DNA of 64,000 bases from an uncultured bacterium (GCA_938084905.1 CALKEQ010000001.1:26835-90834), one strand, 5' to 3'; positions 12,522-34,045 are shown, counted from the stretch's first letter. Notes: generated by a model not told the origin, from the letters alone. Program-made: numbers and translations.

Positions 12522-12977
12522 TTAAAGTGAAAGATGCATAACGATGGCGTCCTCTCCTGTATCCTCGTAATATCTTTTTCTCCTTCCCACAGCCTTAAAA
12601 CCGAACTTAAGATAGAGTTTGATAGCGGCTAGATTACTCTCTCTAACTTCAAGATAAACCTCTCTTATCCCTTTTTCCCTCAGTATGGAAAGGGCGGATG
12701 AGAAAAGTTTCGATCCGTAACCTTGTCTTCTGAACTTGGGATCTATAGCAAGGTTCAGAACGTGACATTCATCTTTTGAGATAAGACACATTATGTATCC
12801 AACGACAACTCCATCCGCCTCTATAAGGAGGTTAAAGGCAAAGGGTGATAAGATCTGGACTTTTAGCGCCTCCTTTGACCAGGGGGTTGGAAATGAGGCC
12901 CTCTCTATCTCAATTAGCCTCGATAGATCGAAGGGAAGTATTTCCCTCACTTTGAGGGACTTTTCTTCCTCTCTCAT
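12522..12977 (-). CDS. rimI: ribosomal-protein-alanine N-acetyltransferase
   Basis: 151 aa GNAT fold with RRQGYGSKL acetyl-CoA motif. Confidence 0.8.
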   Translation of the reverse strand: MREEEKSLKVREILPFDLSRLIEIERASFPTPWSKEALKVQILSPFAFNLLIEADGVVVGYIMCLISKDECHVLNLAIDPKFRRQGYGSKLFSSALSILREKGIREVYLEVRESNLAAIKLYLKFGFKAVGRRKRYYEDTGEDAIVMHLSL

Positions 12978-13576
12978 TCCATGAGGGTTTGGGAGAATTT
13001 TTCTAACTCCTCCTTTGTATTTATGTTCGCAAATACGGATGTTCCCCTATTGTAAAAGGAAGGATTGTCTTCCACAATCTTCACCTCAAGGAATGGAAAA
13101 ACGGTTTGTATTTTCATAAATCCCAAATCGAGCATTTTCAGAAAAAAAGGTATGCACCTTTTTCCGTAAATTGCGTGAAGCGGTTCAAAACCCTTTTTTG
13201 TCTGTGGAACTACTATATCCTCATTTTTCAGATTTCCTATAACGCACCTTAGGCTTTCTTCCGTTATGAAAGGCATATCGCATGCAACAACAAAGGTATA
13301 CTCTTTTGAACTCTTAATAAGGGAAGTCAAAATACCAACCATTGGACTTCCCAATGGCATAATGTCTCTATAGATTTTTACCGGTATTCCTTCGGGACTT
13401 CTCCCATCCTTTGTAATTACCATCACCTCGTCGAAGATTCCTTTTGCAATGTCGTAAACGTGTCTTATCAAGGCCTTACCATTGAAGATGACTGTCGCCT
13501 TATCAAGCCCCATTCTTGTACTAGATCCTCCAGCTAGGATCGCACACGACACTTTCATAAGACCTTTTTTTAGCAT
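12974..13576 (-). CDS. mobA: molybdenum cofactor guanylyltransferase
   Basis: 200 aa. ILAGGSSTRMGLDKA nucleotide-binding motif. Confidence 0.85.
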   Translation of the reverse strand: MLKKGLMKVSCAILAGGSSTRMGLDKATVIFNGKALIRHVYDIAKGIFDEVMVITKDGRSPEGIPVKIYRDIMPLGSPMVGILTSLIKSSKEYTFVVACDMPFITEESLRCVIGNLKNEDIVVPQTKKGFEPLHAIYGKRCIPFFLKMLDLGFMKIQTVFPFLEVKIVEDNPSFYNRGTSVFANINTKEELEKFSQTLME

Positions 13577-13647: not shown

Positions 13648-13923
13648 ATGGCAAAGGATCCAAAGATCGGATATAAAATCACAGGGCAGATAGTAAGAGT
13701 CAAAGGCAATTGCCTTGCAGGCCATTATGTGGGCGAGAGTTTCGAGATCTCATGTCACAATCCGGCAGGGCTATGTGGTTTCTTTTACCACGACATATTT
13801 CCAGCTCTCTTTACCTTTCAGTTCGGTGGTTCGGCACCATGGTGGCACGGAGATGAGATAGAACTCTCATGTCCGGATAAGGAGAATGAGGTTGTGATCA
13901 AACTGGTAAGATCTAAAAGATAA
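13648..13923 (+). CDS. TIGR04076-like small conserved protein
   Basis: 91 aa. Pattern C..GH..G..F......P.G.C...........GG..PW........CPD..N.V is as I recall for that family. Confidence 0.65.
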   Translation: MAKDPKIGYKITGQIVRVKGNCLAGHYVGESFEISCHNPAGLCGFFYHDIFPALFTFQFGGSAPWWHGDEIELSCPDKENEVVIKLVRSKR

Positions 13924-14034: not shown

Positions 14035-14108
14035 GGGCCGTTAACTCAGCCAGGTAGAGTATCTGCCTTTTAAGCAGAGAGTCGGAGGTTCGAGTCCTCC
14101 ACGGCCCA
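14035..14108 (+). tRNA. tRNA-Lys (anticodon UUU)
   Basis: Manual cloverleaf: acceptor GGGCCGT/ACGGCCC, anticodon stem TCTGC/GCAGA with loop CTTTTAA, T-arm GGAGG-TTCGAGT-CCTCC. No encoded CCA. Confidence 0.93.
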
Positions 14109-14111
14109 TAA

Positions 14112-14186
14112 GTCCCCATCGTCTAGTCAGGCCCAGGACACCGGTCTTTCAAGCCGGCAACGGGGGTTCAAATCCCCCTGGGGACG
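14112..14186 (+). tRNA. tRNA-Glu (anticodon UUC)
   Basis: Acceptor GTCCCCA/TGGGGAC, anticodon stem CCGGT/GCCGG with loop CTTTCAA, T-arm GGGGG-TTCAAAT-CCCCC. Closely resembles canonical bacterial tRNA-Glu. Confidence 0.92.
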
Positions 14187-14250: not shown

Positions 14251-14288
14251 ATTGTGAAATTTTTAATTAAGTGGCAAAGGAGGGCAAA

Positions 14289-15086
14289 ATGAAGGTCGTA
14301 GTCTGCGTAAAGCAGGTGCCAGATACGGAGGCGGAAATAAAGTGGGATGTGGAGAAAGGGGTTCTAAAAAGAGACTCCATGGATCCTATAACCAACCCGT
14401 TCGACGAATTTGCCGTTGAGGAAGCGTTGCTTACCCGCGAAAAATACGACTGCGAGATATACGCTATTTCAATGGGACCTGAAAGAGCCCAGGAGGTTCT
14501 AAGGAACGCCTTGGCCTTAGGTGTAAATGGCGTGTACCATATACTGGACCCCCAACTTTCCGGATCTGATACATTTGGAACAGCATATGCCCTTGCGAAA
14601 GCAATAATGAAGATAGGAGATGTGGACATAGTCTTTATGGGCAGGCAGTCAACAGATGGAAATACTGGAGTTGTTCCTGGAGAAGTAGCCGCCATTTTAG
14701 GATACACCCCTCTTACCTACGTTTCAAAGATTAGAGAGATAGATTTTCAGGGGAAAAGGATAGTTGTGGAAAGGGCCATAGAAGGTGGGTTTGAAGTTGT
14801 TGAAGCCAAATTACCGGCTGTTGTTTCCGTAATAAAAGGCATAAATGAGCCAAGACTTCCCAATCTGATGGGTATTAGAAGGGCCGCAAAAATGGAGATA
14901 CCTAAGTGGACATGTGACGATCTGGGCTTAGATAAGGATAAGGTTGGACTTTCAGCCTCCTCTACCAGAGTTGTGGAAATATCCGTTCCGCCACCTAAGG
15001 CTCAGGGCGAGATCCTAAAAGGTGATCTTGATGAGGTTGCGGAACAGCTTGCCTCCAGGCTATTAGATCTGAAGATTATAAAATAA
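14289..15086 (+). CDS. etfB: electron transfer flavoprotein beta subunit
   Basis: MKVVVCVKQVPD N-terminus and NEPRLPNLMGI motif. The ATG at 14289 with RBS is preferred over the track's GTG at 14271. Confidence 0.9.
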   Translation: MKVVVCVKQVPDTEAEIKWDVEKGVLKRDSMDPITNPFDEFAVEEALLTREKYDCEIYAISMGPERAQEVLRNALALGVNGVYHILDPQLSGSDTFGTAYALAKAIMKIGDVDIVFMGRQSTDGNTGVVPGEVAAILGYTPLTYVSKIREIDFQGKRIVVERAIEGGFEVVEAKLPAVVSVIKGINEPRLPNLMGIRRAAKMEIPKWTCDDLGLDKDKVGLSASSTRVVEISVPPPKAQGEILKGDLDEVAEQLASRLLDLKIIK

Positions 15087-15097
15087 AGGAGGAACAC

Positions 15098-16081
15098 ATG
15101 GGAGACGTATGGGTATATATAGAACATAGAGAAGGTTCAACTTCGCCCCTCTCCTTCGAACTTCTTGGCATTGGGAAAAAGCTTGCCCAGGAAAGAGGGG
15201 GGAAAGTTTGTGCTTTGGTAATAGGAGAGAGTGTGGACCAGATAGCTAAAGAGGCCATCGAATACGGTGCTGAGAAGGTATACGCTTTAACAGGCGGTGT
15301 TTTTAAAAACTTCAGGAGCGATGTATACACAAAGGCCGCATGCCAGCTCATAGAAAAATACGGTCCAGACATTATACTCTTCAGATCTACAACGCAAGGT
15401 ACTGATCTTTCCTCAGGGATCGCTGGGAAATTAAACGTTGGAATCTGCGCTGACGCTATATCCGTATATCACGAAAATAACGTCTTAAAAATGGTAAGGG
15501 CCGCATTCGGCGGAAGATTCAACGTAACAGTGGTAAACGAGAGGGCAACCCCCAAACTTATAACAGTGAGACCGAAGGCTTTTGAGATGCCAGAAAAGAA
15601 GGATGGTCAAAAGGGGGAAATTATAAGTGAGAGTGTGGGAGTTTCCGATTCTGATTCGATGATGAAAGTCGTCGACTTCGTTAAGTCCGCTGTTACAGTC
15701 AATCTCGTGGAAGCAGATATAATAGTCTCAGGCGGAAGGGGTCTTGGCAAACCAGAAGGGTTTAACCTTCTTAGGGAGTTTGCAGATCTAATAGGTGCTG
15801 CTTTAGGTGCCTCAAGGGCTGCTGTTGACTCAGGATGGATCCCGTACGAGCACCAGGTTGGCCAGACAGGAAAGACTGTCAAACCAAAACTGTACATCGC
15901 ATGCGGAATCTCAGGGGCCATCCAGCATCTTGCCGGAATGAGAACTTCAGATTGCATAGTTGCGATAAATAAAGACCCAGATGCACCCATATTCAAGATC
16001 GCAACTTTCGGAATCGTTGGCGACCTCTACCAGGTAATACCGAAGCTTATCGAAAAATTCAAAGCAAAGCTCGGAAAATAA
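15098..16081 (+). CDS. etfA: electron transfer flavoprotein alpha subunit
   Basis: 327 aa. C-terminal FAD-binding region IVSGGRGLG...YIACGISGAIQHLAGM. Confidence 0.9.
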   Translation: MGDVWVYIEHREGSTSPLSFELLGIGKKLAQERGGKVCALVIGESVDQIAKEAIEYGAEKVYALTGGVFKNFRSDVYTKAACQLIEKYGPDIILFRSTTQGTDLSSGIAGKLNVGICADAISVYHENNVLKMVRAAFGGRFNVTVVNERATPKLITVRPKAFEMPEKKDGQKGEIISESVGVSDSDSMMKVVDFVKSAVTVNLVEADIIVSGGRGLGKPEGFNLLREFADLIGAALGASRAAVDSGWIPYEHQVGQTGKTVKPKLYIACGISGAIQHLAGMRTSDCIVAINKDPDAPIFKIATFGIVGDLYQVIPKLIEKFKAKLGK

Positions 16082-16090
16082 GAGGCTATC

Positions 16091-16579
16091 ATGGAAAGCC
16101 ACGATTTCGATTTTACCGAACTCAAAAGGTTTATAGAGGAGTCGAAAGGGGAAAAGGGCATACTTATAAAGACCCTTTACAAGGCTCAGAGTTTATTTGG
16201 ATATCTGCCTATTGAGGTCCAATCCTTTATAGCAAAGGAGCTTAATCTAAAGTTTTCTCAGGTCTACGGGGTCGTGACTTTTTACAACTTCTTCCGGATG
16301 GAGCCTGTGGGAAAACACCTGATAAACGTGTGCCTTGGAACTGCATGCCATGTAAAGGGGGCTGAAGATGTCCTTTCCTCCATTTCCCAGGAGCTAAACG
16401 TAAAGGTAGGAGGAACAACCAGTGATAGATTGTTTACCCTTTCAACTGCCAGGTGCTTTGGCGGTTGTGGACTCGCTCCCTGCATAATGATTGACGAAGA
16501 GGTCTACGGCAGGCTAAATCCGAAGAAGGTTGTGCAGATATTAAGGGAAATCAGGGAGAAGGAAAATGAAAAGGGATGA
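16091..16579 (+). CDS. NuoE/FdsG-like thioredoxin-fold [2Fe-2S] subunit
   Basis: 162 aa. Cys pattern CLGTAC...CFGGCGLAPC is typical of NuoE/HydC. Confidence 0.85.
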   Translation: MESHDFDFTELKRFIEESKGEKGILIKTLYKAQSLFGYLPIEVQSFIAKELNLKFSQVYGVVTFYNFFRMEPVGKHLINVCLGTACHVKGAEDVLSSISQELNVKVGGTTSDRLFTLSTARCFGGCGLAPCIMIDEEVYGRLNPKKVVQILREIREKENEKG

Positions 16580-19500
16580 TCTCTTTAGGATAAAAGAGGA
16601 AAGGCAAAGGAAAGCGAAAGAGGCAAAATACGAGGTTTTTACGTGTTCTGGAGCTTCATGTATATCTTCAAGAAGCCTTGAAATTAAGGAGGCCCTCCTT
16701 CATGGCCTAAAGAAAGATAATCTCATGGACAGAGTCAAAATAATAGAAACTGGATGCATGGGGCCATGTCAGGAGGGGCCACTTCTTTACGTTAAGCCTG
16801 AGGAGATATACTACGTCAGATTAACAAAAGAAGACATCCCCGAAATAATTGGAACCCACATCAAAGAAGGAAAGATAGTTGAGAGATTGGTATGGCGTAA
16901 TGAGAGTTCTTTTTTCGAAAAACAGAAAAAAGTGGTCCTTTCTAATTCTGGAAGGATAGATCCGGAGGACATAGAGGCCTACATAGAGAAAGACGGTTAT
17001 TTTGCTCTCCTTAAAGTCCTTGAAGAGATGACACCGGAGAAGGTTATTGAGGAGATTTTAAAATCAGGACTGAGGGGAAGAGGAGGAGCAGGATTTCCAA
17101 CAGGTCTAAAGTGGAAACTTGCAAGGGAGAGAGAGGCGGATGAAAAATTCGTAATATGTAACGCAGATGAAGGAGATCCCGGTGCATTCATGGACAGGGC
17201 AGTGCTGGAGGGTGATCCCCATGCCGTACTTGAAGGAATGGCTATTGCCGCTTACGCAATTGGCGCAAAAAAGGGGTATATATACGTAAGGGCGGAGTAT
17301 CCACTCGCAATAAAAAGGCTTGAGATAGCCATAAGCCAAGCAAGAAATTACGGACTTCTTGGTAGAAATATACTTGAAAAAAACTTCGATTTTGACGTGG
17401 ACCTAAGAATAGGGGCAGGAGCTTTTGTCTGTGGAGAGGAGACTGCCTTAATCGCCTCTATTGAAGGAAAAAGGGGGATGCCAAGACCAAGGCCTCCTTT
17501 TCCGGTTGAAAGGGGTCTTTGGGGAAAACCAACAGTAATTAACAATGTAGAGACTTTTGCGACAGTACGACACATAATTCTCAATGGAAGCTCCTGGTTT
17601 TCTTCAATTGGGACAGAAAATAGCAAAGGAACCAAGATTTTTGCCCTCTCTGGAAAGGTTGAAAATACCGGACTCGTTGAAGTCCCTATGGGAATAACAC
17701 TTGGCGAGATCGTTTTTGACATAGGAGGAGGAACTCCGAAGGGTAAAAAGTTTAAAGCAGTTCAGACTGGAGGACCATCAGGCGGCTGCATACCTCCTTC
17801 ACTCCTCAACTTACCCGTTGATTACGAGTCACTGAAAGAGGCTGGTGCCATTATGGGCTCTGGAGGAATGATAGTTCTCGATGAGGATAACTGCATGGTG
17901 AACATGGCGAAGTACTTTGTGGAATTCACAATGTCCGAATCTTGTGGTCAGTGCACTCCCTGTCGAGTTGGGCTTAAACATCTTTACGATATCCTAGACA
18001 GAATTACAAAAGGCAAAGGCAAACCGGATGACCTAATTAGACTCGAGAAGATCGCAAAAGAAGTTAGAGATTCGTCCCTATGCGGTCTTGGACAGACAGC
18101 TCCAAATCCTATCCTTTCGACCCTTGATTATTTCAGGGACGAATACGAGGACCACATATTGAGAAAAAGATGTAAGGCCTCAGTTTGTGCTTCCCTTTTT
18201 TTTGCACCTTGCAGTAACACCTGTCCGGCGGAAGTTGATGTGAGTAGATACGTGGCTTATGTGTGTGAGGGAAAACTTGAAGAGGCCTTTTTAACTCATA
18301 TGGAGAACAACCCCTTTCCCGCGAGTTGTTCAAGGATTTGTCCAGCATTCTGTGAGGGCAAGTGCGAAAGGGGAAAGATGGACGATCCGATCTCTATAAG
18401 AGAAATTAAAAGGATATTTGCTGATTACGCACTAAAAAAGGATATAAGGTTTGACCCACCAAAAAGAGAGAAGAAAGAAAGGGTAGCAATCATAGGTGGT
18501 GGACCGTCAGGTCTATCTCTCGCTTTTTATCTCACCCGTCTCGGTTACAGACCGACCCTTTTCGAAGAGAGTGAAAAGCTCGGCGGTATGATGAGATACG
18601 GCATCCCTCCTTACAGGTTACCTAAGAGGATCCTCGACCTGGAGATAAGTAGGATAGTCGATGCTGGGGTGGATGTGAGGCTTAAAAAAAGGGTAAGTAG
18701 TGTTCGAGAGCTTCTCTCCCAGGGCTTCGATGCGGTATACGTTTCAATTGGAGCATCTTTATCTCAAAGACTGAATGTGGAAGGAGAAAGATCACCTTCC
18801 GTTTTAGACGGAATAGAATTTCTGAGAAGGATTAACGAAGGAGAAAAGATCGATCTTCAAGGGAAAAGGGTCCTTGTTGTGGGTGGCGGTTCTACAGCCA
18901 TGGATGCGGCAAGGGTTGCGTTAAGACTTAAAGCAAAGGATGTGTTTTTATCTTACAGAAGGACAAGACTCGAGATGCCTGCCCAGAAAGTCGAAGTCGA
19001 GGAAGCTGAAGAAGAGGGTGTAAAAATGCTATTCTTAACAAACCCCGTTGCTTTTAGAACTAATGGGGGAGGACTTGAAGTTGAGTTTGTCAAAATGGGA
19101 CTTAAAGGGTTCGACAGAATGGGCAGGAGAAATCCCTATCCGATCGAGGGATCCCAGTTTTCAATGCCATTCGACATCGCCATTTTATGCATCGGCCAGA
19201 AACCTAACTCCCAAATCTTTTCAGAGGAACTGGAGATTGAAAAGGATGGGACCTTTAAAGTCGACCCTGATACGCTTATGACTTCCATTCCTGGAGTCTT
19301 TGCAGGAGGGGATGCGGTTCTCGGTCCTGCAACCGTCGTAGAGGCCATCGGTCACGGAAGGAAGGCTGCAATCTCAATAGATAAGTACTTTGGGTATTCC
19401 GGTGAGCTCCCCTTTGGGGAGAGGCAGGAGGTAAAGACAACTTACAATGAGGAAGAGTTCCTGAAAGAAACGAGAAGGAAAAAACCGAATCTTAAAGCAG

Positions 19501-19616
19501 TAGCCGAACGGATCACCTCCTTTGTTGAAGTTAACGAGGGTCTATCCCTGGAAGATGCCATATTTGAGGCGAGAAGATGCCTCCACTGTGATAGGGGGAA
19601 AAGGGTTGTAAGATAG
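16566..19616 (+). CDS. fusion: NuoF/FdsB-like NADH-FMN-[4Fe-4S] subunit + GltD/NfnB-like FAD NAD(P)H oxidoreductase
   Basis: 1016 aa. N-terminal 2Fe-2S domain (CSGASC...CMGPC). NuoF core (GLRGRGGAGFPTGLKW, ESCGQCTPCR). GltD part (NPFPASCSRICPAFCEGKC, RVAIIGGGPSGL, GIPPYRLPK, VLVVGGGSTAMDAAR). Confidence 0.85.
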   Translation: MKRDDLFRIKEERQRKAKEAKYEVFTCSGASCISSRSLEIKEALLHGLKKDNLMDRVKIIETGCMGPCQEGPLLYVKPEEIYYVRLTKEDIPEIIGTHIKEGKIVERLVWRNESSFFEKQKKVVLSNSGRIDPEDIEAYIEKDGYFALLKVLEEMTPEKVIEEILKSGLRGRGGAGFPTGLKWKLAREREADEKFVICNADEGDPGAFMDRAVLEGDPHAVLEGMAIAAYAIGAKKGYIYVRAEYPLAIKRLEIAISQARNYGLLGRNILEKNFDFDVDLRIGAGAFVCGEETALIASIEGKRGMPRPRPPFPVERGLWGKPTVINNVETFATVRHIILNGSSWFSSIGTENSKGTKIFALSGKVENTGLVEVPMGITLGEIVFDIGGGTPKGKKFKAVQTGGPSGGCIPPSLLNLPVDYESLKEAGAIMGSGGMIVLDEDNCMVNMAKYFVEFTMSESCGQCTPCRVGLKHLYDILDRITKGKGKPDDLIRLEKIAKEVRDSSLCGLGQTAPNPILSTLDYFRDEYEDHILRKRCKASVCASLFFAPCSNTCPAEVDVSRYVAYVCEGKLEEAFLTHMENNPFPASCSRICPAFCEGKCERGKMDDPISIREIKRIFADYALKKDIRFDPPKREKKERVAIIGGGPSGLSLAFYLTRLGYRPTLFEESEKLGGMMRYGIPPYRLPKRILDLEISRIVDAGVDVRLKKRVSSVRELLSQGFDAVYVSIGASLSQRLNVEGERSPSVLDGIEFLRRINEGEKIDLQGKRVLVVGGGSTAMDAARVALRLKAKDVFLSYRRTRLEMPAQKVEVEEAEEEGVKMLFLTNPVAFRTNGGGLEVEFVKMGLKGFDRMGRRNPYPIEGSQFSMPFDIAILCIGQKPNSQIFSEELEIEKDGTFKVDPDTLMTSIPGVFAGGDAVLGPATVVEAIGHGRKAAISIDKYFGYSGELPFGERQEVKTTYNEEEFLKETRRKKPNLKAVAERITSFVEVNEGLSLEDAIFEARRCLHCDRGKRVVR

Positions 19617-19624
19617 GAGGGAAA

Positions 19625-22321
19625 ATGGAAGTCGAAATTACAATAGATGGGAAAAAAATAAAGGCTCAGAAAAATGAAAACCTTCTGAGGGTAGCGAAAA
19701 AAAACGGGATATACATTCCCAGCCTCTGCTACTATGAAAAAATTTCTCCTACAGGGGTTTGTAGACTCTGTCTTGTAAAAGTGGAAAACATGAGAGGGCT
19801 TGTTCCGGCGTGTGCGACTTTTGTCACAGACGGGATGAAGGTCATTGCAAATGATGAGGAACTCTTCGAGCTTAGACGTGACATACTCGACATGCTTCTT
19901 TCAGAGCACAACGCCGATTGCATAGCCTGTGACAAAAACGGTTCCTGCGAGCTTCAGGATCTTGCCTATAGATTCGGCCTCGAATTGAAAAACAGAAAAT
20001 TCAGACCTCTCTGGCATGAACTGGAATTAAGAAGGGACGAATCCTCCTATGTCCTCTCCTTTGACAGTTCCAAGTGCGTTAAATGTCAGAGATGTATAAA
20101 GGCCTGCTACGAGATTCAGGGAAAGGGGGTCCTTTCATTTGCAAAAAGGGGTATGGAAACGTATCTTGTGGCAGGTTTCGGAACCTGGAAAGACTCTGAA
20201 TGTGACGCCTGCGGAGAGTGTGTTCAGGCATGTCCAGTAGGCGCGATAGTTGAAAAACCGGTCTTTGAAAGGGTACGAGCGATCGATGTGGAAAAAAAGG
20301 TGGAAACAACATGCCCTTACTGTGGAGTTGGATGCCAAATAGAACTCTGGGTGAAGGAAGGAAAAATTGTGAAAGTAAGAGGTCTCGATGAGAAACCTAA
20401 CAACGGCTCATTGTGTGTTAAGGGAAGGTTCGGTTTTTCTTTTGTCCATTCGGAAGAAAGGCTAAAATCTCCTCTCCTTAGAGAGGGAAACCAGTTTAAA
20501 GAGATAGGGTGGGATGAGGCAATAAGGATTTTTGTAGAGAGAATAAAAGAGATCAAGGAAAAATACGGACCAGAAAGCATAGCAGTCCTTGCTTCTGCTA
20601 AAATCACAAATGAGGAGAACTACCTTCTTCAGAAGTTTACGAGGGTTGTCCTGGGAACTAATAACATTGACCACTGTGCCAGACTTTGACATGCACCGAC
20701 CGTCGCAGGTCTTGCGGCGGCTTTTGGTTCAGGGGCAATGACAAACTCTTTAGAGGAACTTGAGTATGCGGATTGTATTCTCCTTACAGGCTCAAATACA
20801 ACTGAGACCCACCCTGTTACCGCCACATTCATAAAAAGGGCCGTACTTTTACATGGTGCCAAGCTCATTGTTGTCGATCCAAGGGAGATCGAGCTCGCCA
20901 AATACGCAAATATCTACCTTCAGCCCAGAAACGGGACCGATGTGGCATGGATAAATGGGATGATGCATGTAATACTTAAAGAGGGGCTTCACAACAAAAA
21001 ATTTATAGAAGAGAGGACAGAAGGCTTCGAGACGATAATCCCAATTATAGAAAAATTCACTCCTGAGAAGGTTGAGGAAATAACTGGTATCCCGAGGGAA
21101 AAGCTGATCGAAGCGGCAAGGATCTTTGCAACGGCGAAGAATGGCTCCATAGTCTACGCAATGGGAATAACCCAGCATATAACTGGAACGGACAATGTAC
21201 TGTCCCTTGCCAATCTCGCTATGATCACGGGAAATGTGGGAAAGGAGTTTTCGGGTGTAAATCCTCTAAGAGGTCAGAACAACGTTCAGGGTGCATGCGA
21301 TATGGGTTGCCTCCCGTCTTTCTTGCCTGGTTATGCAAGAGTGGAAGATGCTCAAGCAAGGAAAAGGTTTGAGGATTTTTACGGAGTGCCTCTTCCAGAA
21401 AAGGCAGGACTTACAGTTGTTGAAATGATGGAGGCTGCTATAGAGGGGAAAGTAAAAGCCATGTACGTAGTTGGTGAGAATCCCCTCCTTACGGATCCGA
21501 ATATCCCTCACGTTGAGAAGGCTTTAAAAAATCTTGAATTCCTCGTAGTTCAAGACATGTTTATGACAGAGACCGCAAAATGTGCTGATCTCGTTTTACC
21601 GTCCGCTTCCTTTGCGGAAAAAGAGGGTACATTCACGAACACTGAGAGGAGAGTATTGCCTGTAAGACCCGCTTTTGAACCACTCTACGGCTCAAAAACA
21701 GATCTGGAAATTATCTCTCTTCTTTGGAGAGCCATGGGAGGGGAAATCCGGATCAGTTCATCGAAGGATGTCCTCGATGAGATAAACAGGGTAGTCCCAT
21801 CGTACCGAGGAATAACGTATGAGAGGATAAAGTCTGGAGAGAGGATTCAGTGGCCCTGTCCAGATGTTAATCACCCTGGAACAAAGTACCTGCATAAGGA
21901 TGTTTTCGCAAGAGGGAAGGGTAAATTTCATCCCGTTGACTTTATCCCGCCTAATGAGTTGCCTGATGAAGAATATCCATTTTTGCTTTCAACGGGTAGA
22001 ATCATGTTTCACTACCACACTGGTTCAATGACAAGAAAGGTCTCTTCCCTTGAACTCTTCGCTCCAGAGCCATTTGTTGAGATTAGTGACAAGGATCTCA
22101 AAAGACTCAATGTAAAGGATGGGGAGATGGTAAAGGTCATTTCCAGAAGAGGAGAAATTACTCTTAGGGCCAAAAGGAGTGAACGAGTATTTGAAGGCTC
22201 AGTCTTTATCCCATTTCATTATGCGGAGGCTTCAGCAAACATACTGACCAACGACGCTCTCGATCCTATATCGAAGATTCCAGAGTTTAAGGTTGCTGCC
22301 GTAAGGATTGAAAAAATTTAG
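19625..22321 (+). CDS. fdhA: formate dehydrogenase catalytic subunit, selenocysteine-containing, with NuoG-like N-terminal Fe-S domains
   Basis: Track ORFs 19625-20689 and 20738-22321 share one frame. The UGA at 20687-20689 sits in [14 protein letters not shown], the canonical Sec/Cys Mo-ligand position. 2Fe-2S, HX3CX2CX5C, two CX2CX2CX3CP and CPYCGVGC motifs lie upstream. Confidence 0.9.
20695..20728 (+). promoter_or_regulatory. SECIS-like hairpin directing Sec insertion at UGA 20687
   Basis: Upper stem CCGTCGCA/TGCGGCGG (20700-20707 / 20713-20720, one G-U pair) with apical loop GGUCU. Lower stem ACCGA/TTGGT (20695-20699 / 20724-20728). Starts 6 nt after the UGA. Confidence 0.7.
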
Positions 22322-22386: not shown

Positions 22387-24069
22387 ATGAAAAGACTTTT
22401 TCTCATCGTATTTTTAGTCCTGCCGCTTCTCTCTCACTCCTCTGATTTCTCACAGGCCATCTACTATTACTTAAGGGGCATGGACAAGATGGCCCGTGGC
22501 CTCCTTTTTGATGCAATTTACGAGATGGAGAATGCTCTTAAATTTGACCCTTCTTCCTCCACTTTGAGGACTGAACTTGCAAATCTTTTTCTCCGCACAG
22601 GCCAGTTGGAGAAGGCGGAGGAGGTCTTACTGGAGGCTATAGAGATAAATCCAAAAAACAGAGCAGCATACCTTATCCTTGGAGGTCTTTACGCGGCCAA
22701 AGGAGACAATGAAAGTGCAAAAAGGACTTACCTAAAATGTGTAGAGGCCCTTGAAGAGGATACTGAATGTTACATTCACCTTGCTTCCATCTTTTTGATG
22801 GAAGGTAATTTTGAAAGGGCGAGAGAAATATATCAGAAGATTCTGAGCTCCGACCCTGAAAATCTTATAGCCCTTTACTATCTCGGTCGGATAGGGGCAG
22901 AGATGAAGGATTATGAAACTGCAAAGAAATATTTTTTTAAGGTTTTGGAGGTGAGGCCCAATTTTGAAATTGCCCTTTTCGACCTTGCAACTGTTTATGA
23001 GATGGAAGGTGAGATAAGAAAGGCAAAGGAGATATACGAGAAGATCTTACTTTTAAACCCCGCAAATAGAACGGCAAGGTCTAGGATTGCGAATATATAC
23101 GTGAGGGAAAAGGAGTACGAAAGAGCCATCTCAGAATTTGAAAAGTTATCTAAGATGGATGAAAAGGATCTTTCCATAAGGGTGAAAATTGGTCTCCTAA
23201 AGATGGAGATGGGAAATTTCGATGACGCAATCAGGGAGTTTAATCTTTACCTCGCATCTGATCCAAATAACAGCACTGTCAGGACGTACTTGGGCTTTGC
23301 ATTGAAAGAAAAAGGTCTTTTCAGAAACGCCATAGACGAATTTTTAAAGGTACCTGTAGACTCGGCCGAATTCCCAATAGTCCTGAGGAACTTAACATTT
23401 CTTTTCGTAAAGGCCGATCTCGTTGATGAAGGGATCGAAAGGCTCAAATCCTTTCTAGATAAGGTGAAAGATAAGAAGGATGTATACGTTCTCCTTTCAG
23501 TCCTTTACGAGGAAAAGGGTGATCTTAAGTCTGGAATAGAGATGCTAGAAGAGGCTCTAAGAATAGATCCTCAGAACCTGGACACCCTTTACAGTATTGG
23601 CATGCTCCATGAAAGGGCGGGAAATACGGACGAAGCAATAAAATACATGCAAAGAATCCTCGATCAGGACCCTGAACATCCTGAGGCATTAAACTTCATA
23701 GGTTATACGTGGGCAGAAAAGAACATGAACCTTGATGAAGCCGAAGAAATGATAAAAAAGGCCCTTTCTAAAAAGCCAAACGCAGGCCATATAATAGATA
23801 GCCTTGGGTGGGTCTATTTCCGAAAAGGAAAACTAAAGGAGGCTCTTGAACAGCTACTTAGAGCTTATGAACTCATTCCGGACGACCCAACGATCTGTGA
23901 GCACCTCGGAGACATTTACGAAGCGATCGGTGAATACCAGAAGGCAGTTGAGTACTTTGAAAAATCAATAAAGGCTGAAAAAAAAGAGGAAAAGAGAAGG
24001 GAAGTGGAAAAAAAGCTTTTGGAGCTCAAAAGAAAAATTGAGAGAAAAATGGACCCCTCCGTCAGATGA
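22387..24069 (+). CDS. secreted tetratricopeptide-repeat protein
   Basis: 560 aa with a signal peptide and more than 10 TPR-like 34-aa units (A..Y..AL..DP.N...). Confidence 0.8.
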   Translation: MKRLFLIVFLVLPLLSHSSDFSQAIYYYLRGMDKMARGLLFDAIYEMENALKFDPSSSTLRTELANLFLRTGQLEKAEEVLLEAIEINPKNRAAYLILGGLYAAKGDNESAKRTYLKCVEALEEDTECYIHLASIFLMEGNFERAREIYQKILSSDPENLIALYYLGRIGAEMKDYETAKKYFFKVLEVRPNFEIALFDLATVYEMEGEIRKAKEIYEKILLLNPANRTARSRIANIYVREKEYERAISEFEKLSKMDEKDLSIRVKIGLLKMEMGNFDDAIREFNLYLASDPNNSTVRTYLGFALKEKGLFRNAIDEFLKVPVDSAEFPIVLRNLTFLFVKADLVDEGIERLKSFLDKVKDKKDVYVLLSVLYEEKGDLKSGIEMLEEALRIDPQNLDTLYSIGMLHERAGNTDEAIKYMQRILDQDPEHPEALNFIGYTWAEKNMNLDEAEEMIKKALSKKPNAGHIIDSLGWVYFRKGKLKEALEQLLRAYELIPDDPTICEHLGDIYEAIGEYQKAVEYFEKSIKAEKKEEKRREVEKKLLELKRKIERKMDPSVR

Positions 24070-24554
24070 AAAAAAACCTTTTTCTTATACTCCTTTCACT
24101 CCTCTCCTTTTCCTGTTCTTCCGCTGCTTATAGATTCAGTTGGCCAGAGACCGCACAAACTGTAAGAGCCTACTGTGAGTTAGATATTTCCTCGCGCCTC
24201 TTCTCTTTCAGCGGTTATGCCACACTGAGAATGGATCCCTCTCAGTTCTACGCAGAAATACTCGATTCTTTTTCCACTACTCTCATGATCTTGAAAAAGG
24301 AAGGTGACAAAACCACTTTGGTTTCAGCAGATGAAATGATTTCCGAGGCATTCGGCACTCTTCTTTTTCCTTTTGAGGACGTGATAGAGGATATTCGGAA
24401 AGCCCAATTTTATCTGACAAAGGGAGAGAGAGTATCCCTTGATAAGAAATATTACAGAGTGACCTACGATCCAACAAAAAGGAAACCTTCCATATGCTGG
24501 AATAGGGAAGATGGAAGCATGTGCATTACCTTTCTTGATGTGCAGAAAATCTGA
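24066..24554 (+). CDS. lipoprotein of unknown function (possibly LolB/DUF4292-like)
   Basis: Lipobox LLSFSCSS. 162 aa, with a 4-nt overlap onto the TPR gene. Confidence 0.45.
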   Translation: MKKNLFLILLSLLSFSCSSAAYRFSWPETAQTVRAYCELDISSRLFSFSGYATLRMDPSQFYAEILDSFSTTLMILKKEGDKTTLVSADEMISEAFGTLLFPFEDVIEDIRKAQFYLTKGERVSLDKKYYRVTYDPTKRKPSICWNREDGSMCITFLDVQKI

Positions 24555-29769: not shown

Positions 29770-30363
29770 TTGATAAAGGTGATTTTAGATTTTTTAATTG
29801 ACAGTTATGTGCAACTGGGGTACAGTATACAAGTGATAGAAATAAAGTTCACTGGAAGGGGCGGTAATGGCGTTGTCGTAGCCGCGCAGATGCTGGCAAA
29901 AGCTTTTTTCCTCAGCGGATTTTATCCTCAGTGCTTTTCGCTTTTTGGTGGGGAAAGAAGGGGGGCACCGGTAAAGAGTTTTTTAAGAGTCAACTCCAGT
30001 AAGATATTGCTCAAATGTGAGATAAAAAAAGCCGACCATCTAATTGTAATGGCAGCCGACCTCCTCCCTGAAGAACCGCTAACAGAGAACCTTAAGAACG
30101 GAGGATTAGTACTCATAAACGCTGACAGGCCTTTTAAGGTTGAAGGACCATTTAAAGTGGCATACGTTGATGCCCAAAAGATAGCAAGGGAATGTAGACT
30201 CGGTAACATAATAAATACAGCCATGCTCGGGGCCTACGCCCGAATCAGCGAGATTCTGTCACTCAACTATCTTGAGAAGGCAGTAAGAGAATACGTGCCT
30301 TCAAAGTTGGATGAAAATCTGAGAGCATTGAGAAGAGCTTATGAAGAAGCACGGACTTTTTGA
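29770..30363 (+). CDS. 2-oxoacid:ferredoxin oxidoreductase gamma subunit
   Basis: IEIKFTGRGGNGVVVAAQMLAKA is typical of PorG/KorC. The true start may be the GTG at 29833. Confidence 0.85.
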   Translation: MIKVILDFLIDSYVQLGYSIQVIEIKFTGRGGNGVVVAAQMLAKAFFLSGFYPQCFSLFGGERRGAPVKSFLRVNSSKILLKCEIKKADHLIVMAADLLPEEPLTENLKNGGLVLINADRPFKVEGPFKVAYVDAQKIARECRLGNIINTAMLGAYARISEILSLNYLEKAVREYVPSKLDENLRALRRAYEEARTF

Positions 30364-32062
30364 TGAGATAATGCCTGTATCAAAAACCCCCACAAGTGCA
30401 CATAAGACAGGGCTTTGGGGAAATCTGAAGCCTCTATACAAGGAAGCTACCAGTCCGTGCAGGGAATCCTGCCCACTTAATACAGATATTCCTCTCTTCA
30501 TCTTCCATATGAAGGAAAAAGATCTAAAAAGAGCAAAAGAGGAGATCCTCCTAGAGAATCCCTTTCCTGGAATATCCGGCAGGGTCTGCCACCACCCCTG
30601 TGAGGACGCCTGTAATAGAAGAGAACTTGATTCATCGGTCTCTGTTAGGGCCCTCGAGAGGTTTTTGGGAGATTACCCCTTCTACGAAGTTCCTGTATCT
30701 GAAAACAGAAGCCCAAAAAAAGTGGCAATAGTTGGCTCTGGTCCGGCAGGTCTTTCCTGTGCTTACTTTCTTTTGAGACTAGGACACAAGGTCACCATAT
30801 TCGAGAAGGAAAGTGATGTGGGTGGTCTTCTACTATTCGGCATTCCTCCGTACAGACTACCAAAAAATGTACTTCGGAGGGATCTACATGTTCTTTTAGC
30901 CCTCAAACCTCAAATAAGACTAAATTTTGAACTGACGGGAGATAATATTTTCTCCCTTCTTGGGTCCTTTGACTATGTGTTTCTCGCTCCAGGCATGGGA
31001 GAATCGAAAAGGCTACAAGTTGCAGGTGAAAATAAAAAGGGGGTTTACTACGGAGTTCAATTCCTAAAGGAAGTAAAGTCGATTGAGGATGAAATAAGAA
31101 GAGCAATAGTTATCGGCGGTGGGGATGTTGCAATGGACGTGGCAAGAACGATAAGAAGACTTAAGCCCGATGCAAAGGTAAGTATCTTTGCACCTGAGAA
31201 AGTGGAAGACCTACCTGCATTAAGAGAAAACGTCGCGGAGGCCCTCGAAGAAGGGATAGATTTAATCTGCGGGTATCTGCCCCTTTATTTTGAAGGAAAA
31301 AAGAGGATTGAAGCGGTAATTTTTCAAAGGACTGAGGTTAAAAAGGATGAAAAAACTGGAAAGTTCCTGTTCATTCCCCTAAATGAAAAAAGGGAGGAGG
31401 CCGCAGATATGGCGGTTGTTTGTATAGGACAGAAGCCTCTGGAGGCAAGTAAACTTAGGGAGATTGCGGAAGAGGAGGGGTATATTCTGGTTGACCATAG
31501 AGGAAGAACTAAAATCGAAAGGATCTATGCGGGAGGTGACATCATTGGACAGAAAGCCACTGTTTCTTTGGCATCATCCTCCGGAAAAAGAGCGGCCATA
31601 TGCATAGATATGGATGCAAAACGCCTCGATTTGCCACTAGATGAGCTCTATGTGGGAAGCAAAGGGTTTCTGTCATTTAAAAAATACTTGAAGCTCGAGA
31701 AAAAGGAGACTAGGAAGGTGGTAGGATTTTCTGACCTTAACACGCTACCTCATGAAAAGATCCCCAGGGTAGATGCAAAAAAAGAGGAACCTCTTGAGAG
31801 ATTAAAGGATTTTCGCGAGATCGGATACACCTATACAAAGGAAGAGGCGGAAAAGGAATCGGATAGATGCCTCTCATGTGGACAGTGTATGAGGTGTAAT
31901 CTTTGCTTCTATCTATGCCCAGATGTCTCTATAAGGAGAAAAGCAGATGGGCTATACGAGGTGGACGAAGATTACTGCAAGTCCTGCGGAGTATGTGCAA
32001 AAACGTGTCCCTCAAATGTAATAGAAATGGTAGAAAAAGATGGCGGAGCTTTTATCAGGTAA
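30341..32062 (+). CDS. fusion: GltD/NfnB-like FAD NAD(P)H oxidoreductase + 2x[4Fe-4S] delta-ferredoxin subunit of 2-oxoacid:ferredoxin oxidoreductase
   Basis: 573 aa. NPFPGISGRVCHHPCEDAC, KVAIVGSGPAGL, GIPPYRLPK, VIGGGDVAMDVAR. C-terminal CLSCGQCMRCNLC...CKSCGVCAKTCP. An alternative start is the ATG at 30371. Confidence 0.85.
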   Translation: MKKHGLFDEIMPVSKTPTSAHKTGLWGNLKPLYKEATSPCRESCPLNTDIPLFIFHMKEKDLKRAKEEILLENPFPGISGRVCHHPCEDACNRRELDSSVSVRALERFLGDYPFYEVPVSENRSPKKVAIVGSGPAGLSCAYFLLRLGHKVTIFEKESDVGGLLLFGIPPYRLPKNVLRRDLHVLLALKPQIRLNFELTGDNIFSLLGSFDYVFLAPGMGESKRLQVAGENKKGVYYGVQFLKEVKSIEDEIRRAIVIGGGDVAMDVARTIRRLKPDAKVSIFAPEKVEDLPALRENVAEALEEGIDLICGYLPLYFEGKKRIEAVIFQRTEVKKDEKTGKFLFIPLNEKREEAADMAVVCIGQKPLEASKLREIAEEEGYILVDHRGRTKIERIYAGGDIIGQKATVSLASSSGKRAAICIDMDAKRLDLPLDELYVGSKGFLSFKKYLKLEKKETRKVVGFSDLNTLPHEKIPRVDAKKEEPLERLKDFREIGYTYTKEEAEKESDRCLSCGQCMRCNLCFYLCPDVSIRRKADGLYEVDEDYCKSCGVCAKTCPSNVIEMVEKDGGAFIR

Positions 32063-33197
32063 TCACGCCATAGCAGAGGCTGTGAGACTCTCAAAGGTCG
32101 ATTTTGTTGCCGCTTATCCCATTACTCCTCAGACACCAATTTATGAAAAGATAGCTGAGATGATCTCGGAGGGAAAAATGTGCGGCCAGATGATGAGAGC
32201 GGAATCTGAGCACTCCGCAATGGCTGCCTGCATATCCGCGTCCCTTGCCGGCGTGAGAGTATTTACCGCCAGTTCTTCCCAGGGAATAGCGTACATGCAC
32301 GAGATGCTCCATTTTGCATCAGGTTGCAGGGTTCCAATTGTAATGGCGTGTGTAAACAGGGTCGTTTCTGCTCCGTGGGCCTTTGGAACTGATCAAACCG
32401 ATACCCTCTCTCAGAGGGATACTGGATGGATACAGCTCTACTGTGAGGACGGCCAAGAGGCACTAGATACGGTGATTATGGCTTACAAGGTCTCGGAAAC
32501 CATATTTCTTCCTGTAATGGTTATAATAGATGGGTTTTACACTTCCCATTTCATAGAACCTGTTGAGATTCCGGAACAAACACTCATCGATCAGTACCTA
32601 CCGAAAAGGAATCTGCCAAACAGATTCGATCTTTCAAATCCTGCTTTTTTGCAGAATGTTGTTGATCCTCCTAACTATACCCGGTTTAAAAAGAGGCAAT
32701 TTGACGACACTTTAAAAGCCAGAAGGTTGCTAATTGAGGCGGACAAAGAATTTGGCGAGCTTTTCGGAAGATCGTATGGAGTCGTTGAGCCATTAGAACT
32801 CGCTGATGCAGAAATAGGGATAGTAACAGCAGGTTCCATGACGTCTTGTGCGAGGATTGCGGTTAGGACTTTAAGGAGTAAAGGAATAAAAGCAGGGCTT
32901 TTAAAAATAAAGCTTTTTAGACCATTCCCCTACAATGAGGTGGCAAGATATTTGGGGACTCTTGAAAAAGTGATCGTTATAGATAGAAACGTTTCAAGTG
33001 GAAAGGGAGGGATATTCTGCGACGAGCTTAAGGCTTCAATGTACAACCTAAAGAATAGGCCGGAGATTTACGGTTTTATTGGAGGGCTCTGCGGGGAGGA
33101 TCTGCCCCCTGAAAAATTTGAGAAAATAACACTCTCCGTTCTTAGGGCAAAAAAACCTTGGGATGTACCAAAATGGATACACAGGATGAGATTTTAA
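32040..33197 (+). CDS. 2-oxoacid:ferredoxin oxidoreductase alpha subunit
   Basis: 385 aa. GNHAIAEAVRLSKVDFVAAYPITPQT is the PorA/KorA N-terminal signature. Confidence 0.9.
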   Translation: MAELLSGNHAIAEAVRLSKVDFVAAYPITPQTPIYEKIAEMISEGKMCGQMMRAESEHSAMAACISASLAGVRVFTASSSQGIAYMHEMLHFASGCRVPIVMACVNRVVSAPWAFGTDQTDTLSQRDTGWIQLYCEDGQEALDTVIMAYKVSETIFLPVMVIIDGFYTSHFIEPVEIPEQTLIDQYLPKRNLPNRFDLSNPAFLQNVVDPPNYTRFKKRQFDDTLKARRLLIEADKEFGELFGRSYGVVEPLELADAEIGIVTAGSMTSCARIAVRTLRSKGIKAGLLKIKLFRPFPYNEVARYLGTLEKVIVIDRNVSSGKGGIFCDELKASMYNLKNRPEIYGFIGGLCGEDLPPEKFEKITLSVLRAKKPWDVPKWIHRMRF

Positions 33198-34045
33198 GAA
33201 AAGGACATTACGCATGCCCGGGGTGCGGTTTGGCCATAGCCATGAGACTCGTTCTCCGCGCCGTCGGGAGAAAGGCAATAGCTGTGATTGTACCATCGTG
33301 CGAGGCAGTAATAAGTGGCACGTATCCCTTTTCCGCACTGGAAGTACCTGCATTTCACTCCGCCTTTGCAATTGCAGCACCAACTGCCGCTGGCATTTCC
33401 CGCGCTCTAAAGATAAGAAAGGAGACTGACGTAACAGTTCTCGCATTTGCCGGTGATGGCGGAACTTACGATATAGGCTTACAGTCTCTCTCAGGCGCTG
33501 CTGAAAGAAATGAAGATTTTATCTATGTTTGCCTTGACAATGAAGCCTACATGAACACTGGAATACAGGCGAGCTCCTCAACTCCTCCCTTGTCCTGGAC
33601 AGTAACTACACCGAAAGGAAAGGTAGAGAAAAAGAAGAGGCTTATGGAAATAATCGTTGCTCATTCGGTTCCCTATGCTGCCACAGCCACGATTGGTTAT
33701 CCTCAGGACCTCATGGAAAAGGTAAAAAGGGCAAAGGAGTTTCAAGGAACAAAATTCATACATGTTCTGACACCCTGCCCTACAGGATGGAAGATGAAGG
33801 AGGAACTAACAGGAGTTATTGCTATGCTTGCCTTCGAAACGAAGGTCTTCCCCTTGTACGAGGTTATAAACGGGGAAATCTACAGAATCACAAAGGTTCC
33901 GAAGGGACTTCCGGTTAGGGATTACCTCTCAATCCAGGGTAGATTTTCCCACCTCAGTGAAGATGAAATAGAAAAAATCCAACAGGAAGTGGACATAGAA
34001 TGGGAAAGGCTCATTTACCTAGCTAAAAGACATGAAAAGGTTTAG
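33158..34045 (+). CDS. 2-oxoacid:ferredoxin oxidoreductase beta subunit (TPP-binding)
   Basis: 295 aa. CPGCG motif and TPP motif GDGGTYDIG...N. Confidence 0.9.
   Translation: MGCTKMDTQDEILRKGHYACPGCGLAIAMRLVLRAVGRKAIAVIVPSCEAVISGTYPFSALEVPAFHSAFAIAAPTAAGISRALKIRKETDVTVLAFAGDGGTYDIGLQSLSGAAERNEDFIYVCLDNEAYMNTGIQASSSTPPLSWTVTTPKGKVEKKKRLMEIIVAHSVPYAATATIGYPQDLMEKVKRAKEFQGTKFIHVLTPCPTGWKMKEELTGVIAMLAFETKVFPLYEVINGEIYRITKVPKGLPVRDYLSIQGRFSHLSEDEIEKIQQEVDIEWERLIYLAKRHEKV

Follow-up and report, generated by a model that had tools for sequence, protein, structure and literature searches.

A BfuB-like subunit fused to an Stn/NfnA-type flavin module in the predicted selenocysteine formate dehydrogenase operon of an uncultured bacterium

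Introduction

Electron bifurcation with NAD+ and ferredoxin is generally attributed to enzymes of the Bfu type, in which the C-terminal B3/B4 domain of the BfuB subunit is the ferredoxin exit. In canonical BfuB, the region after the zinc hinge is a ferredoxin-like domain, which holds B3/B4 in two CX2CX2CX3CP motifs and forms the putative ferredoxin site (PMC9304861; PMC12018979). StnABC/NfnABC, which is composed of NuoE, NuoF and GltD-like parts, is a proven NADH/NADPH/ferredoxin transhydrogenase (PMC12018979; PMC11829005; PMC10482914). A further BfuB architecture was named 'sub-type I BfuB' in 2024 for FeFe-hydrogenases of Hydrogenedentota (PMC11406978). We analysed a gene of this same architecture in a stretch of 64,000 nucleotides from an uncultured bacterium (GCA_938084905.1, CALKEQ010000001.1:26835-90834), hereafter the window. 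The gene (16566..19616, + strand) encodes a protein of 1016 aa in which a BfuB-type NuoF is joined to a module that we assign to the Stn/NfnA type of NADPH-FAD modules, based on Pfam, NCBIfam, PDB searches, alignment, an AlphaFold2 model and Foldseek. It belongs to the co-oriented gene run etfB-etfA-nuoE-fusion-fdhA. A preliminary description of this DNA had presented the protein as the diaphorase subunit of a formate dehydrogenase (FDH) fused to a GltD fold of the NfnB/SudA type.

Results

The fusion is a single, conserved protein

The open reading frame (ORF) is uninterrupted from its ATG to its TAA. The Pfam matches along it are 2Fe-2S_thioredx (residues 18-96), which is weak, with 26.4 bits barely over the cut-off of 24.8, then Complex1_51K (165-335, 164 bits), SLBB (359-407), NADH_4Fe-4S (447-530, 116 bits), Fer4_20 (537-626, 80 bits) and Pyr_redox_2 (639-931, 105 bits). 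The NCBIfam models agree, with nuoF_fam covering residues 133-531 (504 bits) and PRK12771, 'NAD(P)-binding protein', covering residues 499-1008 with 489 bits, which does not reach its curated cut-off of 516. The order of thioredoxin-like 2Fe-2S, NuoF, 4Fe-4S and GltD modules in one ORF of 1016 aa, as given in the preliminary description, is therefore borne out by both databases, and the GltD half is supported by the two families expected for it. The four motifs quoted there were all located in the fusion: GRGGAGFPTGLKW at residues 171-183, ESCGQCTPCR at residues 458-467, AIIGGGPSGL at residues 641-650 and VVGGGSTAMDAAR at residues 771-783.

More than 120 full-length homologues (~1000-1030 aa, 52-82% identity) share the fusion architecture, the closest named relative being a protein from a metagenome-assembled genome (MAG) of Thermosulfidibacter takaii, with 61% identity. 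Conservation was measured on an alignment of 62 same-architecture homologues with 52-82% identity, to which all statements on invariant residues below refer. The glycine motifs of the fusion are invariant in this alignment, in agreement with the proposal of two dinucleotide sites in one polypeptide, and the fusion junction, H530...C553, is conserved among the homologues. The AlphaFold2 model of the whole chain has a mean pLDDT of 90.8 and a pTM of 0.86. As the homologues are of equal length and share the junction, a missed stop codon, a frameshift and a chimeric assembly are ruled out. The 1016-aa fusion is thus confirmed as a real subunit.

The N-terminal half corresponds to a BfuB core

In a search of all PDB sequences, residues 23-599 of the fusion matched solved bifurcating BfuB chains with 741-593 bits (7t2r_B, 7q4v_B, 9n5u_B, 9bov_B, 8oh5_B, 8a6t_B and 7p5h_B, which come from NiFe-HydABCSL, FeFe-HydABC, StnABC/NfnABC and WOR-Bfu), whereas the same region reached only 397-380 bits against non-bifurcating FdsB and Nqo1/NuoF. 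A Foldseek comparison of the AlphaFold2 model with the same BfuB chains gave TMt values of 0.84-0.95.

The N-terminal thioredoxin-like [2Fe-2S] domain, the 'B5' site (16617..16892, +), is recognized with 60 bits by NF041612 and has C27, C32, C64 and C68 as predicted ligands; the first two are conserved to at least 90%, and the last two are invariant. The NuoF core (16962..18158, +), delimited by Pfam, NCBIfam, the PDB search and alignment, comprises the FMN/NAD(H) site (G171-W183 and D201-F208), the SLBB domain and the B1 [4Fe-4S] cluster, with C460, C463 and C506 invariant and C466 at least 90% conserved. It is followed by the BfuB 'B2' zinc-hinge motif, H530-x5-C536-x4-C541 (18153..18188, +), with C443 (nt 17892-17894) as the fourth ligand. 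This motif matches 'EAHIRDKKCPAxxC' in the alignment with five solved bifurcating BfuB chains. The zinc-hinge ligands of Thermococcus sibiricus (Tsi) NfnB are C437, H524, C529 and C534 (PMC12018979). They correspond to C443, H530, C536 and C541 of the fusion, all four of which are invariant. The hinge His is reportedly kept in nearly every Bfu-family B subunit and missing from 'HydB homologs' (PMC12018979). The NAD-dependent FdsABG enzymes of Rhodobacter capsulatus (6tg9) and Cupriavidus necator (6vw7) share the layout of a NuoE-like, a NuoF-like and an alpha subunit with the system in the window, including a full-length match between FdsA and FdhA. In contrast, FdsB is a non-bifurcating NuoF that lacks the hinge His, a C-terminal redox domain and an NADPH site, and matches the fusion with ~390 bits, against ~740 bits for BfuB.

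Because of the BfuB scores, the zinc hinge and the N-terminal four-Cys site, the sequence of the N-terminal half is that of a complete bifurcating-type BfuB (HydB/StnB/NfnB) core, with predicted FMN/NAD(H) site, B1, N-terminal [2Fe-2S] and zinc hinge, and not that of a plain diaphorase. The view of the fusion as a diaphorase subunit of an FDH consequently holds for the FDH subunit and not for the plain diaphorase. C536 and C541 had at first been read as DPD_II cluster ligands, following the DPD pattern C-x2-C-x4-C-x3-C; this reading was dropped in favour of their exact fit to the BfuB zinc-hinge motif.

An NADPH/FAD module takes the place of B3/B4

The fusion sequence contains no CX2CX2CX3CP motif, and the region after the hinge is made up of Fer4_20 and Pyr_redox_2. 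Alignments to the solved BfuB chains mostly stop around residues 545-554; the one to 7t2r_B runs to residue 599 and is weak past ~545. From there on, residues 547-1008 align with the GltD-like domain of Caldicellulosiruptor saccharolyticus (Csac) NfnA (102-566), and Tsi NfnA aligns to residues 546-942. The ferredoxin-like domain with B3/B4 is thus swapped for a GltD-like module. The two parts are indeed joined, as the preliminary description stated, yet by replacement and not by simple addition, since the module occupies the B3/B4 position.

The best solved relatives of the module are 9n5u_A (376 bits) and 9bov_A (373 bits), with NfnL (4ylf_B) lower, at 310 bits. Its DPD_II/Fer4_20 domain (18174..18443, +; 80 bits in Pfam) would bind two [4Fe-4S] clusters, as judged by residue alignment to Csac NfnA, whose cluster ligands are C104, C108, C147, C151, C155 and K170 (PMC11829005). 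C553, C592, C596 and K615 of the fusion match C108, C147, C151 and K170, the ligands of the proximal cluster. The most telling position is K615, which is a Lys in Csac NfnA (K170) and also in Sporomusa ovata (Sov) StnC, where it is the same ligand, and a Glu in the NfnL of Thermotoga maritima (Tma) and Pyrococcus furiosus (Pfu). This Lys is strictly conserved in StnC, the FAD of which is non-bifurcating (PMC10482914; PMC12018979). As K615 is a Lys where bifurcating NfnL has a Glu, the FAD of the fusion is probably not bifurcating either. The distal cluster is probably bound by C549 and C600 together with C1005 and C1008, the last two being putative ligands.

The FAD fold (G644-x-G646-x-x-G649) and the NADPH fold (G773-G-G775-x-x-A778 and Y797-R798-R799...M804-P-A806) lie at 18480..19358 (+), and the NADPH-type motifs GxGxxA and YRR...MPA are invariant. 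They are followed by a C-terminal tail of 42 residues, ERITSFVEVNEGLSLEDAIFEARRCLHCD (19467..19592, +), which corresponds to the segment at the N-terminus of canonical NfnL/GltD. It aligns to residues 14-46 of 5jca_L and 13-46 of 5vj7_A, and also to the post-flavin segment of Csac NfnA (540-566). R1004, C1005, L1006, C1008 and D1009 in this tail are invariant, and its pLDDT is 90-96. By sequence alignment, the module is therefore permuted relative to GltD/NfnL, with its CxxC segment behind the flavin domains and not N-terminal as in those proteins. The tail has the same placement in another PRK12771-type protein of the window (30341-32062).

Taken together, these features assign the C-terminal half to the Stn/NfnA-type (PRK12771-like) NADPH modules and not, as had been proposed, to the NfnB/SudA (NfnSL) type. 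NfnAB/NfnSL (Tma 4ylf, Pfu 5jca) has a homologous FAD/NADPH fold with two [4Fe-4S] clusters; however, NfnL has a Glu-ligated proximal cluster, a bifurcating FAD, an N-terminal CxxC and NfnS as partner, whereas the fusion has a Lys and a relocated CxxC, and no gene for an NfnS-like [2Fe-2S]/FAD partner is found in the operon. With regard to glutamate synthase, the GltD-specific NCBIfam models score far under their cut-offs on the fusion, and no Pfam match to the large subunit was obtained among all ORFs located between ~9.3 and 28 kb of the window and selected larger ORFs outside this region. R677, which had been considered as the FAD-N5 arginine, was dropped, as Sov R239 aligns instead with the invariant R684, a position that does not discriminate NfnL from StnC.

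StnABC/NfnABC (S. ovata, C. saccharolyticus, T. sibiricus; 8oh5, 9bov, 9n5u) has NuoE-, BfuB- and GltD-like modules in common with the system in the window, and also the zinc hinge, the Lys-ligated proximal cluster and an RCLxC segment after the flavin domains. The arrangement is different: in StnABC/NfnABC the GltD module is inserted in the NuoG-like StnC/NfnA, feeds B1, and leaves B3/B4 on BfuB, whereas in the fusion the module is on BfuB, where it replaces B3/B4, and the NuoG-like subunit carries a predicted-active FDH.

The neighbouring genes encode NuoE and a selenocysteine FDH

Both a BfuC (NuoE-like) and a BfuA (NuoG-like) gene adjoin the fusion. Neither nuoE nor etfBA nor the selenocysteine figures in the preliminary description. 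Upstream, nuoE (16091..16579, +) encodes a NuoE/HoxE/BfuC-like [2Fe-2S] subunit, predicted to hold the C1 cluster (2Fe-2S_thioredx, 165 bits; HoxE, NuoE and FdsG models), and its 3' end has 14 nt in common with the beginning of the fusion gene. Downstream, fdhA (19625..22321, +) has 898 codons, including a UGA/Sec codon, and encodes a NuoG-like N-terminus fused to a molybdopterin/tungstopterin FDH. Over its full length, FdhA matches the FdsA-type FDH alpha subunits 9wxb_B and 6tg9_A with 749 and 737 bits, which agrees with the partner enzyme proposed earlier, and its C-terminal piece alone matches TIGR01591 with 659 bits.

An in-frame TGA (20687-20689), inside the motif HCARL-U-HAPTV, splits fdhA into two listed ORFs, and the gene is split by an in-frame UGA in four relatives as well (loci L081, L086, L087 and L088). 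It is thus a selenocysteine FDH gene which ORF lists and gene callers break in two. A hairpin with a 9-bp stem (20700..20720, +), resembling a selenocysteine insertion sequence (SECIS), begins 11 nt past the UGA, the position expected of a bacterial SECIS element. The fold of the 65-nt stretch around it is unremarkable (z = -1.4), so that the SECIS call is that of the hairpin alone, and an Rfam scan of the whole window returned two tRNAs only and no SECIS family.

Based on these neighbours, we slightly favour the assignment of the fusion as the flavoprotein subunit of a cytoplasmic, selenocysteine-containing FDH complex composed of FdhA, NuoE/BfuC and the BfuB-like fusion. The Fdh-Bfu systems, predicted for type 1 of Carboxydothermus hydrogenoformans and represented also by HylABC-FdhF2 of Gottschalkia acidurici, likewise combine a BfuBC-like core with a selenocysteine FDH, type 1 with a NuoG-FdhA catalytic subunit, but their BfuB is of the canonical kind, with B3/B4, and they use ferredoxin, whereas the fusion has an NADPH/FAD module and no B3/B4 (PMC9304861). 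The FdhAB of Moorella thermoacetica is also a selenocysteine FDH; its beta subunit is described as having FeS clusters and an NADP-binding domain and no NuoF/FMN/NADH module (PMC5736913).

A MobA-like NTP transferase of the molybdenum cofactor guanylyltransferase family is encoded near the FDH operon (12974-13576, - strand). MobA-like matches are also found near FdhA at two other loci (L058 and L067), and such neighbours are consistent with a supply of the molybdopterin guanine dinucleotide cofactor.

The fusion is widespread and has several catalytic partners

In a scan of loci with one genome per species, we found at least 56 full-length fusion loci, so the search across genomes that had been suggested for this architecture gave ample returns. 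Among the loci listed, the fusion is present in more than 15 bacterial phyla, among others Chloroflexota, Desulfobacterota, Bacteroidota, Bacillota, Spirochaetota, Acidobacteriota, Verrucomicrobiota, Planctomycetota, Omnitrophota, Nitrospirota, Armatimonadota and Gemmatimonadota, and in two archaeal MAGs. A NuoE gene lies shortly upstream in 52 of the 56 listed loci, and in the other four the contig starts too near the fusion gene. The catalytic partner is an FeFe-hydrogenase HydA in 19 of these loci, an FDH in either orientation in 13, and a NiFe HoxYH-like hydrogenase in five, with no partner assigned in the remaining 19. The archaeal copies (L037, Promethearchaeota archaeon Loki_b31, and L051, uncultured archaeon) are full length, with no hydrogenase or FDH within 10 kb of the fusion in either; in L037 the fusion is followed by an ORF of 237 aa for which Fer2_4 (2Fe-2S) is the only Pfam match.

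The fusion is thus a widespread and already noticed BfuB variant. The 'sub-type I BfuB' of Hydrogenedentota has the identical order of B5, FMN, B1, DPD_II with two [4Fe-4S] clusters, and FAD/NAD(P) replacing B3/B4 (PMC11406978). That description is bioinformatic and covers an [FeFe]-hydrogenase partner only, whereas here the partner is a selenocysteine FDH, and genes for an electron transfer flavoprotein (ETF) most similar to the bifurcating type lie upstream. Our literature search for a NuoF::GltD FDH or an ETF-FDH operon returned only this hydrogenase-linked description. What is new here is the selenocysteine FDH partner, the Stn-type assignment, with its Lys ligand and relocated CxxC, and an ETF linkage that is specific to a clade.

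ETF genes precede the operon in the clade of the window

Upstream of nuoE lie etfB (14271..15086, +; ETF domain 138 bits), the true start of which is probably at 14289, and etfA (15098..16081, +), with PDB matches to bifurcating ETFs. The stop of etfA is 9 nt from the start of nuoE, and no terminator-like site separates the two genes. Among solved structures, the five closest to EtfB and EtfA (7koe, 6fah, 4kpu, 5ol2 and 7qh2) are all from bifurcating ETF complexes. Against PDB sequences, EtfB scores 186-130 bits with bifurcating and at most 107 bits with non-bifurcating ETFs, and EtfA scores 306-229 bits and at most 180 bits, respectively. By its closest solved relatives, this EtfAB is most similar to the bifurcating type.

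The etfBA-nuoE linkage is kept in four of five close relatives (L081, L086, L088 and L090) and is absent in L087. The linkage-bearing relatives show 82%, 78% and 74% identity, the remaining one being a 2-kb metagenome contig, and the unlinked L087 shows 76%. One of the linked relatives has other flanking genes and an inserted ThiS-like ORF. Beyond the clade of the window, ETF is ruled out as a general partner of the fusion, as it stands beside none of the 56 other listed fusion loci.

In the next-closest set of ETFs (64-70% identity), the genes follow ORFs that resemble thiolase and crotonase, as judged by N-terminal sequences only. In the window, fdhA is followed (22387-24554) by genes for a TPR protein of 560 aa and a protein of 162 aa with a lipoprotein-like N-terminus. 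In related genomes, etfBA and this TPR/lipoprotein pair neighbour each other without the FDH cassette: in L098, L100, L116, L130 and L131 the pair (~50% and 30-35% identity) lies on the strand opposite to etfBA at a distance of 4-6 kb, and the intervening stretch lacks FDH genes. An insertion of the nuoE-fusion-fdhA cassette, or a rearrangement of the region, is thus suggested for the clade of the window, and the adjacency of etfBA and nuoE may consequently reflect such an insertion. Genes for tRNA-Lys(UUU) and tRNA-Glu(UUC) stand in tandem (14035-14186) between a TIGR04076-family ORF (13648-13923) and etfB, and form the upstream border of the etf-fdh genes.

Discussion

The sequence shows which domains and ligands are present, the homologies and the operon; from these we infer the wiring of this complex, its direction, its coupling and its nucleotide specificities. 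On balance, we lean towards a ferredoxin-independent enzyme that would couple CO2/formate to both NAD(H) and NADP(H). Electrons from FdhA would pass through the NuoG-like clusters and B1 to the FMN at the NAD(H) site, while the mobile C1 cluster of NuoE would hand electrons to the two DPD_II clusters and from these to the FAD at the NADP(H) site. In canonical Bfu enzymes the partner of C1 is B3/B4 with ferredoxin; here the DPD_II clusters would stand in its place. The FAD would act as a simple two-/one-electron converter, as in StnC, and would not be a second bifurcation site. As the Lys ligand argues for such a plain converter, any energetic coupling would be located at B1-FMN-C1. The reaction might then be 2 formate + NAD+ + NADP+ <-> 2 CO2 + NADH + NADPH, or alternatively 2 NADPH + NAD+ + CO2 <-> 2 NADP+ + NADH + formate, which would be Nfn-like, with CO2 replacing ferredoxin. 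Both stoichiometries are near equilibrium and both are possible, the sequence fitting one as well as the other. Since the StnABC/NfnABC transhydrogenase has the same three modules, a built-in link between NAD(H) and NADP(H) is a reasonable reading, and the label 'transhydrogenase-like' may be applied to the fusion by this analogy.

Several observations speak against such a coupled enzyme. The preference of the FMN site for NAD over NADP is predicted by homology. The NADPH module of Stn/NfnABC delivers electrons to the B1 side via the NuoG-like clusters, and here it would be connected on the opposite, C1/hinge side. The physiological potentials are ~-280 mV for NAD, ~-380 mV for NADP and ~-420 mV for formate (PMC9304861, Table 1). 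With a low-potential branch that ends at NADP+ (~-380 mV), thermodynamics would hardly call for bifurcation except with dilute formate. By our own Nernst estimate, the formate potential goes up as formate gets dilute. Furthermore, the nearest relatives examined outside the close clade (P0006, P0013 and P0087, 57-64% identity) are encoded in operons with NuoE, an ORF of ~120 aa, the fusion, NuoE2, NuoF2 and a hydrogenase, and in such operons with two NuoEF pairs the fused subunit may have another role. Lastly, no biochemical study of any member of the fusion family was found in the literature searched. At the loci of these three relatives (L082, L083 and L084/L085), the hydrogenase is of the FeFe or NiFe type, and genes with DRTGG, HATPase and PHP domains lie upstream, together with a gene for an FeFe-hydrogenase-like domain in L082.

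The strongest competitor of the coupled enzyme is an FDH with two independent exits, in which formate electrons leave via the FMN to NAD+ or via the FAD to NADP+, transhydrogenation being a side reaction. The intact state of both dinucleotide sites is in line with this, as are the single FAD exit, of the kind seen in StnC, and the NADP-dependent FDH of M. thermoacetica, which is described as having a GltD-like beta subunit (PMC5736913). Nevertheless, a short-circuit between NADH and NADPH would collapse pyridine-nucleotide pools that are kept separate, and the N-terminal half resembles a bifurcating BfuB in its hinge His, its N-terminal cluster and its order of scores; we therefore regard this alternative as rather unlikely. 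In another alternative, the FAD of the GltD half would be a second, NfnSL-like bifurcating flavin, with ferredoxin docking on the DPD_II clusters. Although the fold is homologous to that of NfnL and a second bifurcation site at the FAD has been raised for 'sub-type I BfuB' (PMC11406978), the proximal ligand is the Lys of the non-bifurcating StnC/NfnA and not the Glu of NfnL, the module is nearer to NfnA/StnC in score, and the operon has no NfnS-like partner, which makes a second bifurcating flavin very improbable. It is harder still to believe that the GltD half is a structural or regulatory relic that takes no part in redox chemistry, comparable to the dead-end A4/A5 branch of Csac NfnA. Relic domains do occur in this enzyme family (PMC11829005), but the cofactor ligands of the GltD half and both of its glycine motifs are invariant in the 62 sequences, in spite of identities of 52-82%, and its AlphaFold2 fold is confident.

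With regard to EtfAB, it could be a stoichiometric part of a five-subunit EtfAB-NuoE-fusion-FdhA complex acting on formate, NAD(H), NADP(H) and ferredoxin or flavodoxin via the ETF flavin. The short, terminator-free gap between etfA and nuoE fits such a complex, and so do the similarity of the ETF to bifurcating ETFs and a linkage kept in four of the five close relatives, in one of them with different flanking genes. However, the ETF is missing at L087 and at all the other listed fusion loci, its nearest relatives have a context of the beta-oxidation type, the arrangement of etfBA and the TPR/lipoprotein genes in related genomes suggests an insertion, and a high-potential acceptor that would serve a bifurcating ETF is not evident. 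Such a complex is thus improbable in our view. If it did exist, it would combine a bifurcating-type ETF flavin, a Bfu flavobicluster and an NADPH-FAD module, a combination not encountered in the literature searched.

Returning to the ferredoxin-independent coupled enzyme, the fusion family swaps the ferredoxin exit for an NADP(H)-FAD module and combines it with three kinds of catalytic partner, namely FeFe-hydrogenase, NiFe-hydrogenase and FDH. Should NADP+ really be the end point of the low-potential branch, these enzymes would couple H2 or formate to both pyridine-nucleotide pools independently of ferredoxin and would represent a new reaction class, with a bearing on NADPH supply, CO2 fixation and the syntrophy of anaerobes based on formate and H2. 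With three core subunits and no second NuoEF pair, the FDH version in the window is a compact candidate for biochemistry and cryo-EM and for a test of the bifurcation site (B1-FMN-C1).

The window contains a second GltD-like flavoprotein of the PRK12771 type, the protein of 573 aa encoded at 30341-32062, which combines Fer4_20, an FAD/NAD(P)H fold and, at the C-terminus, a PorD-like dicluster domain. Its gene is directly upstream of that of a 2-oxoacid:ferredoxin oxidoreductase subunit (POR_N/PFOR_II, 32040-33197), which is followed by two overlapping ORFs. This cluster (30341-34688) suggests an NAD(P)H-linked 2-oxoacid oxidoreductase.

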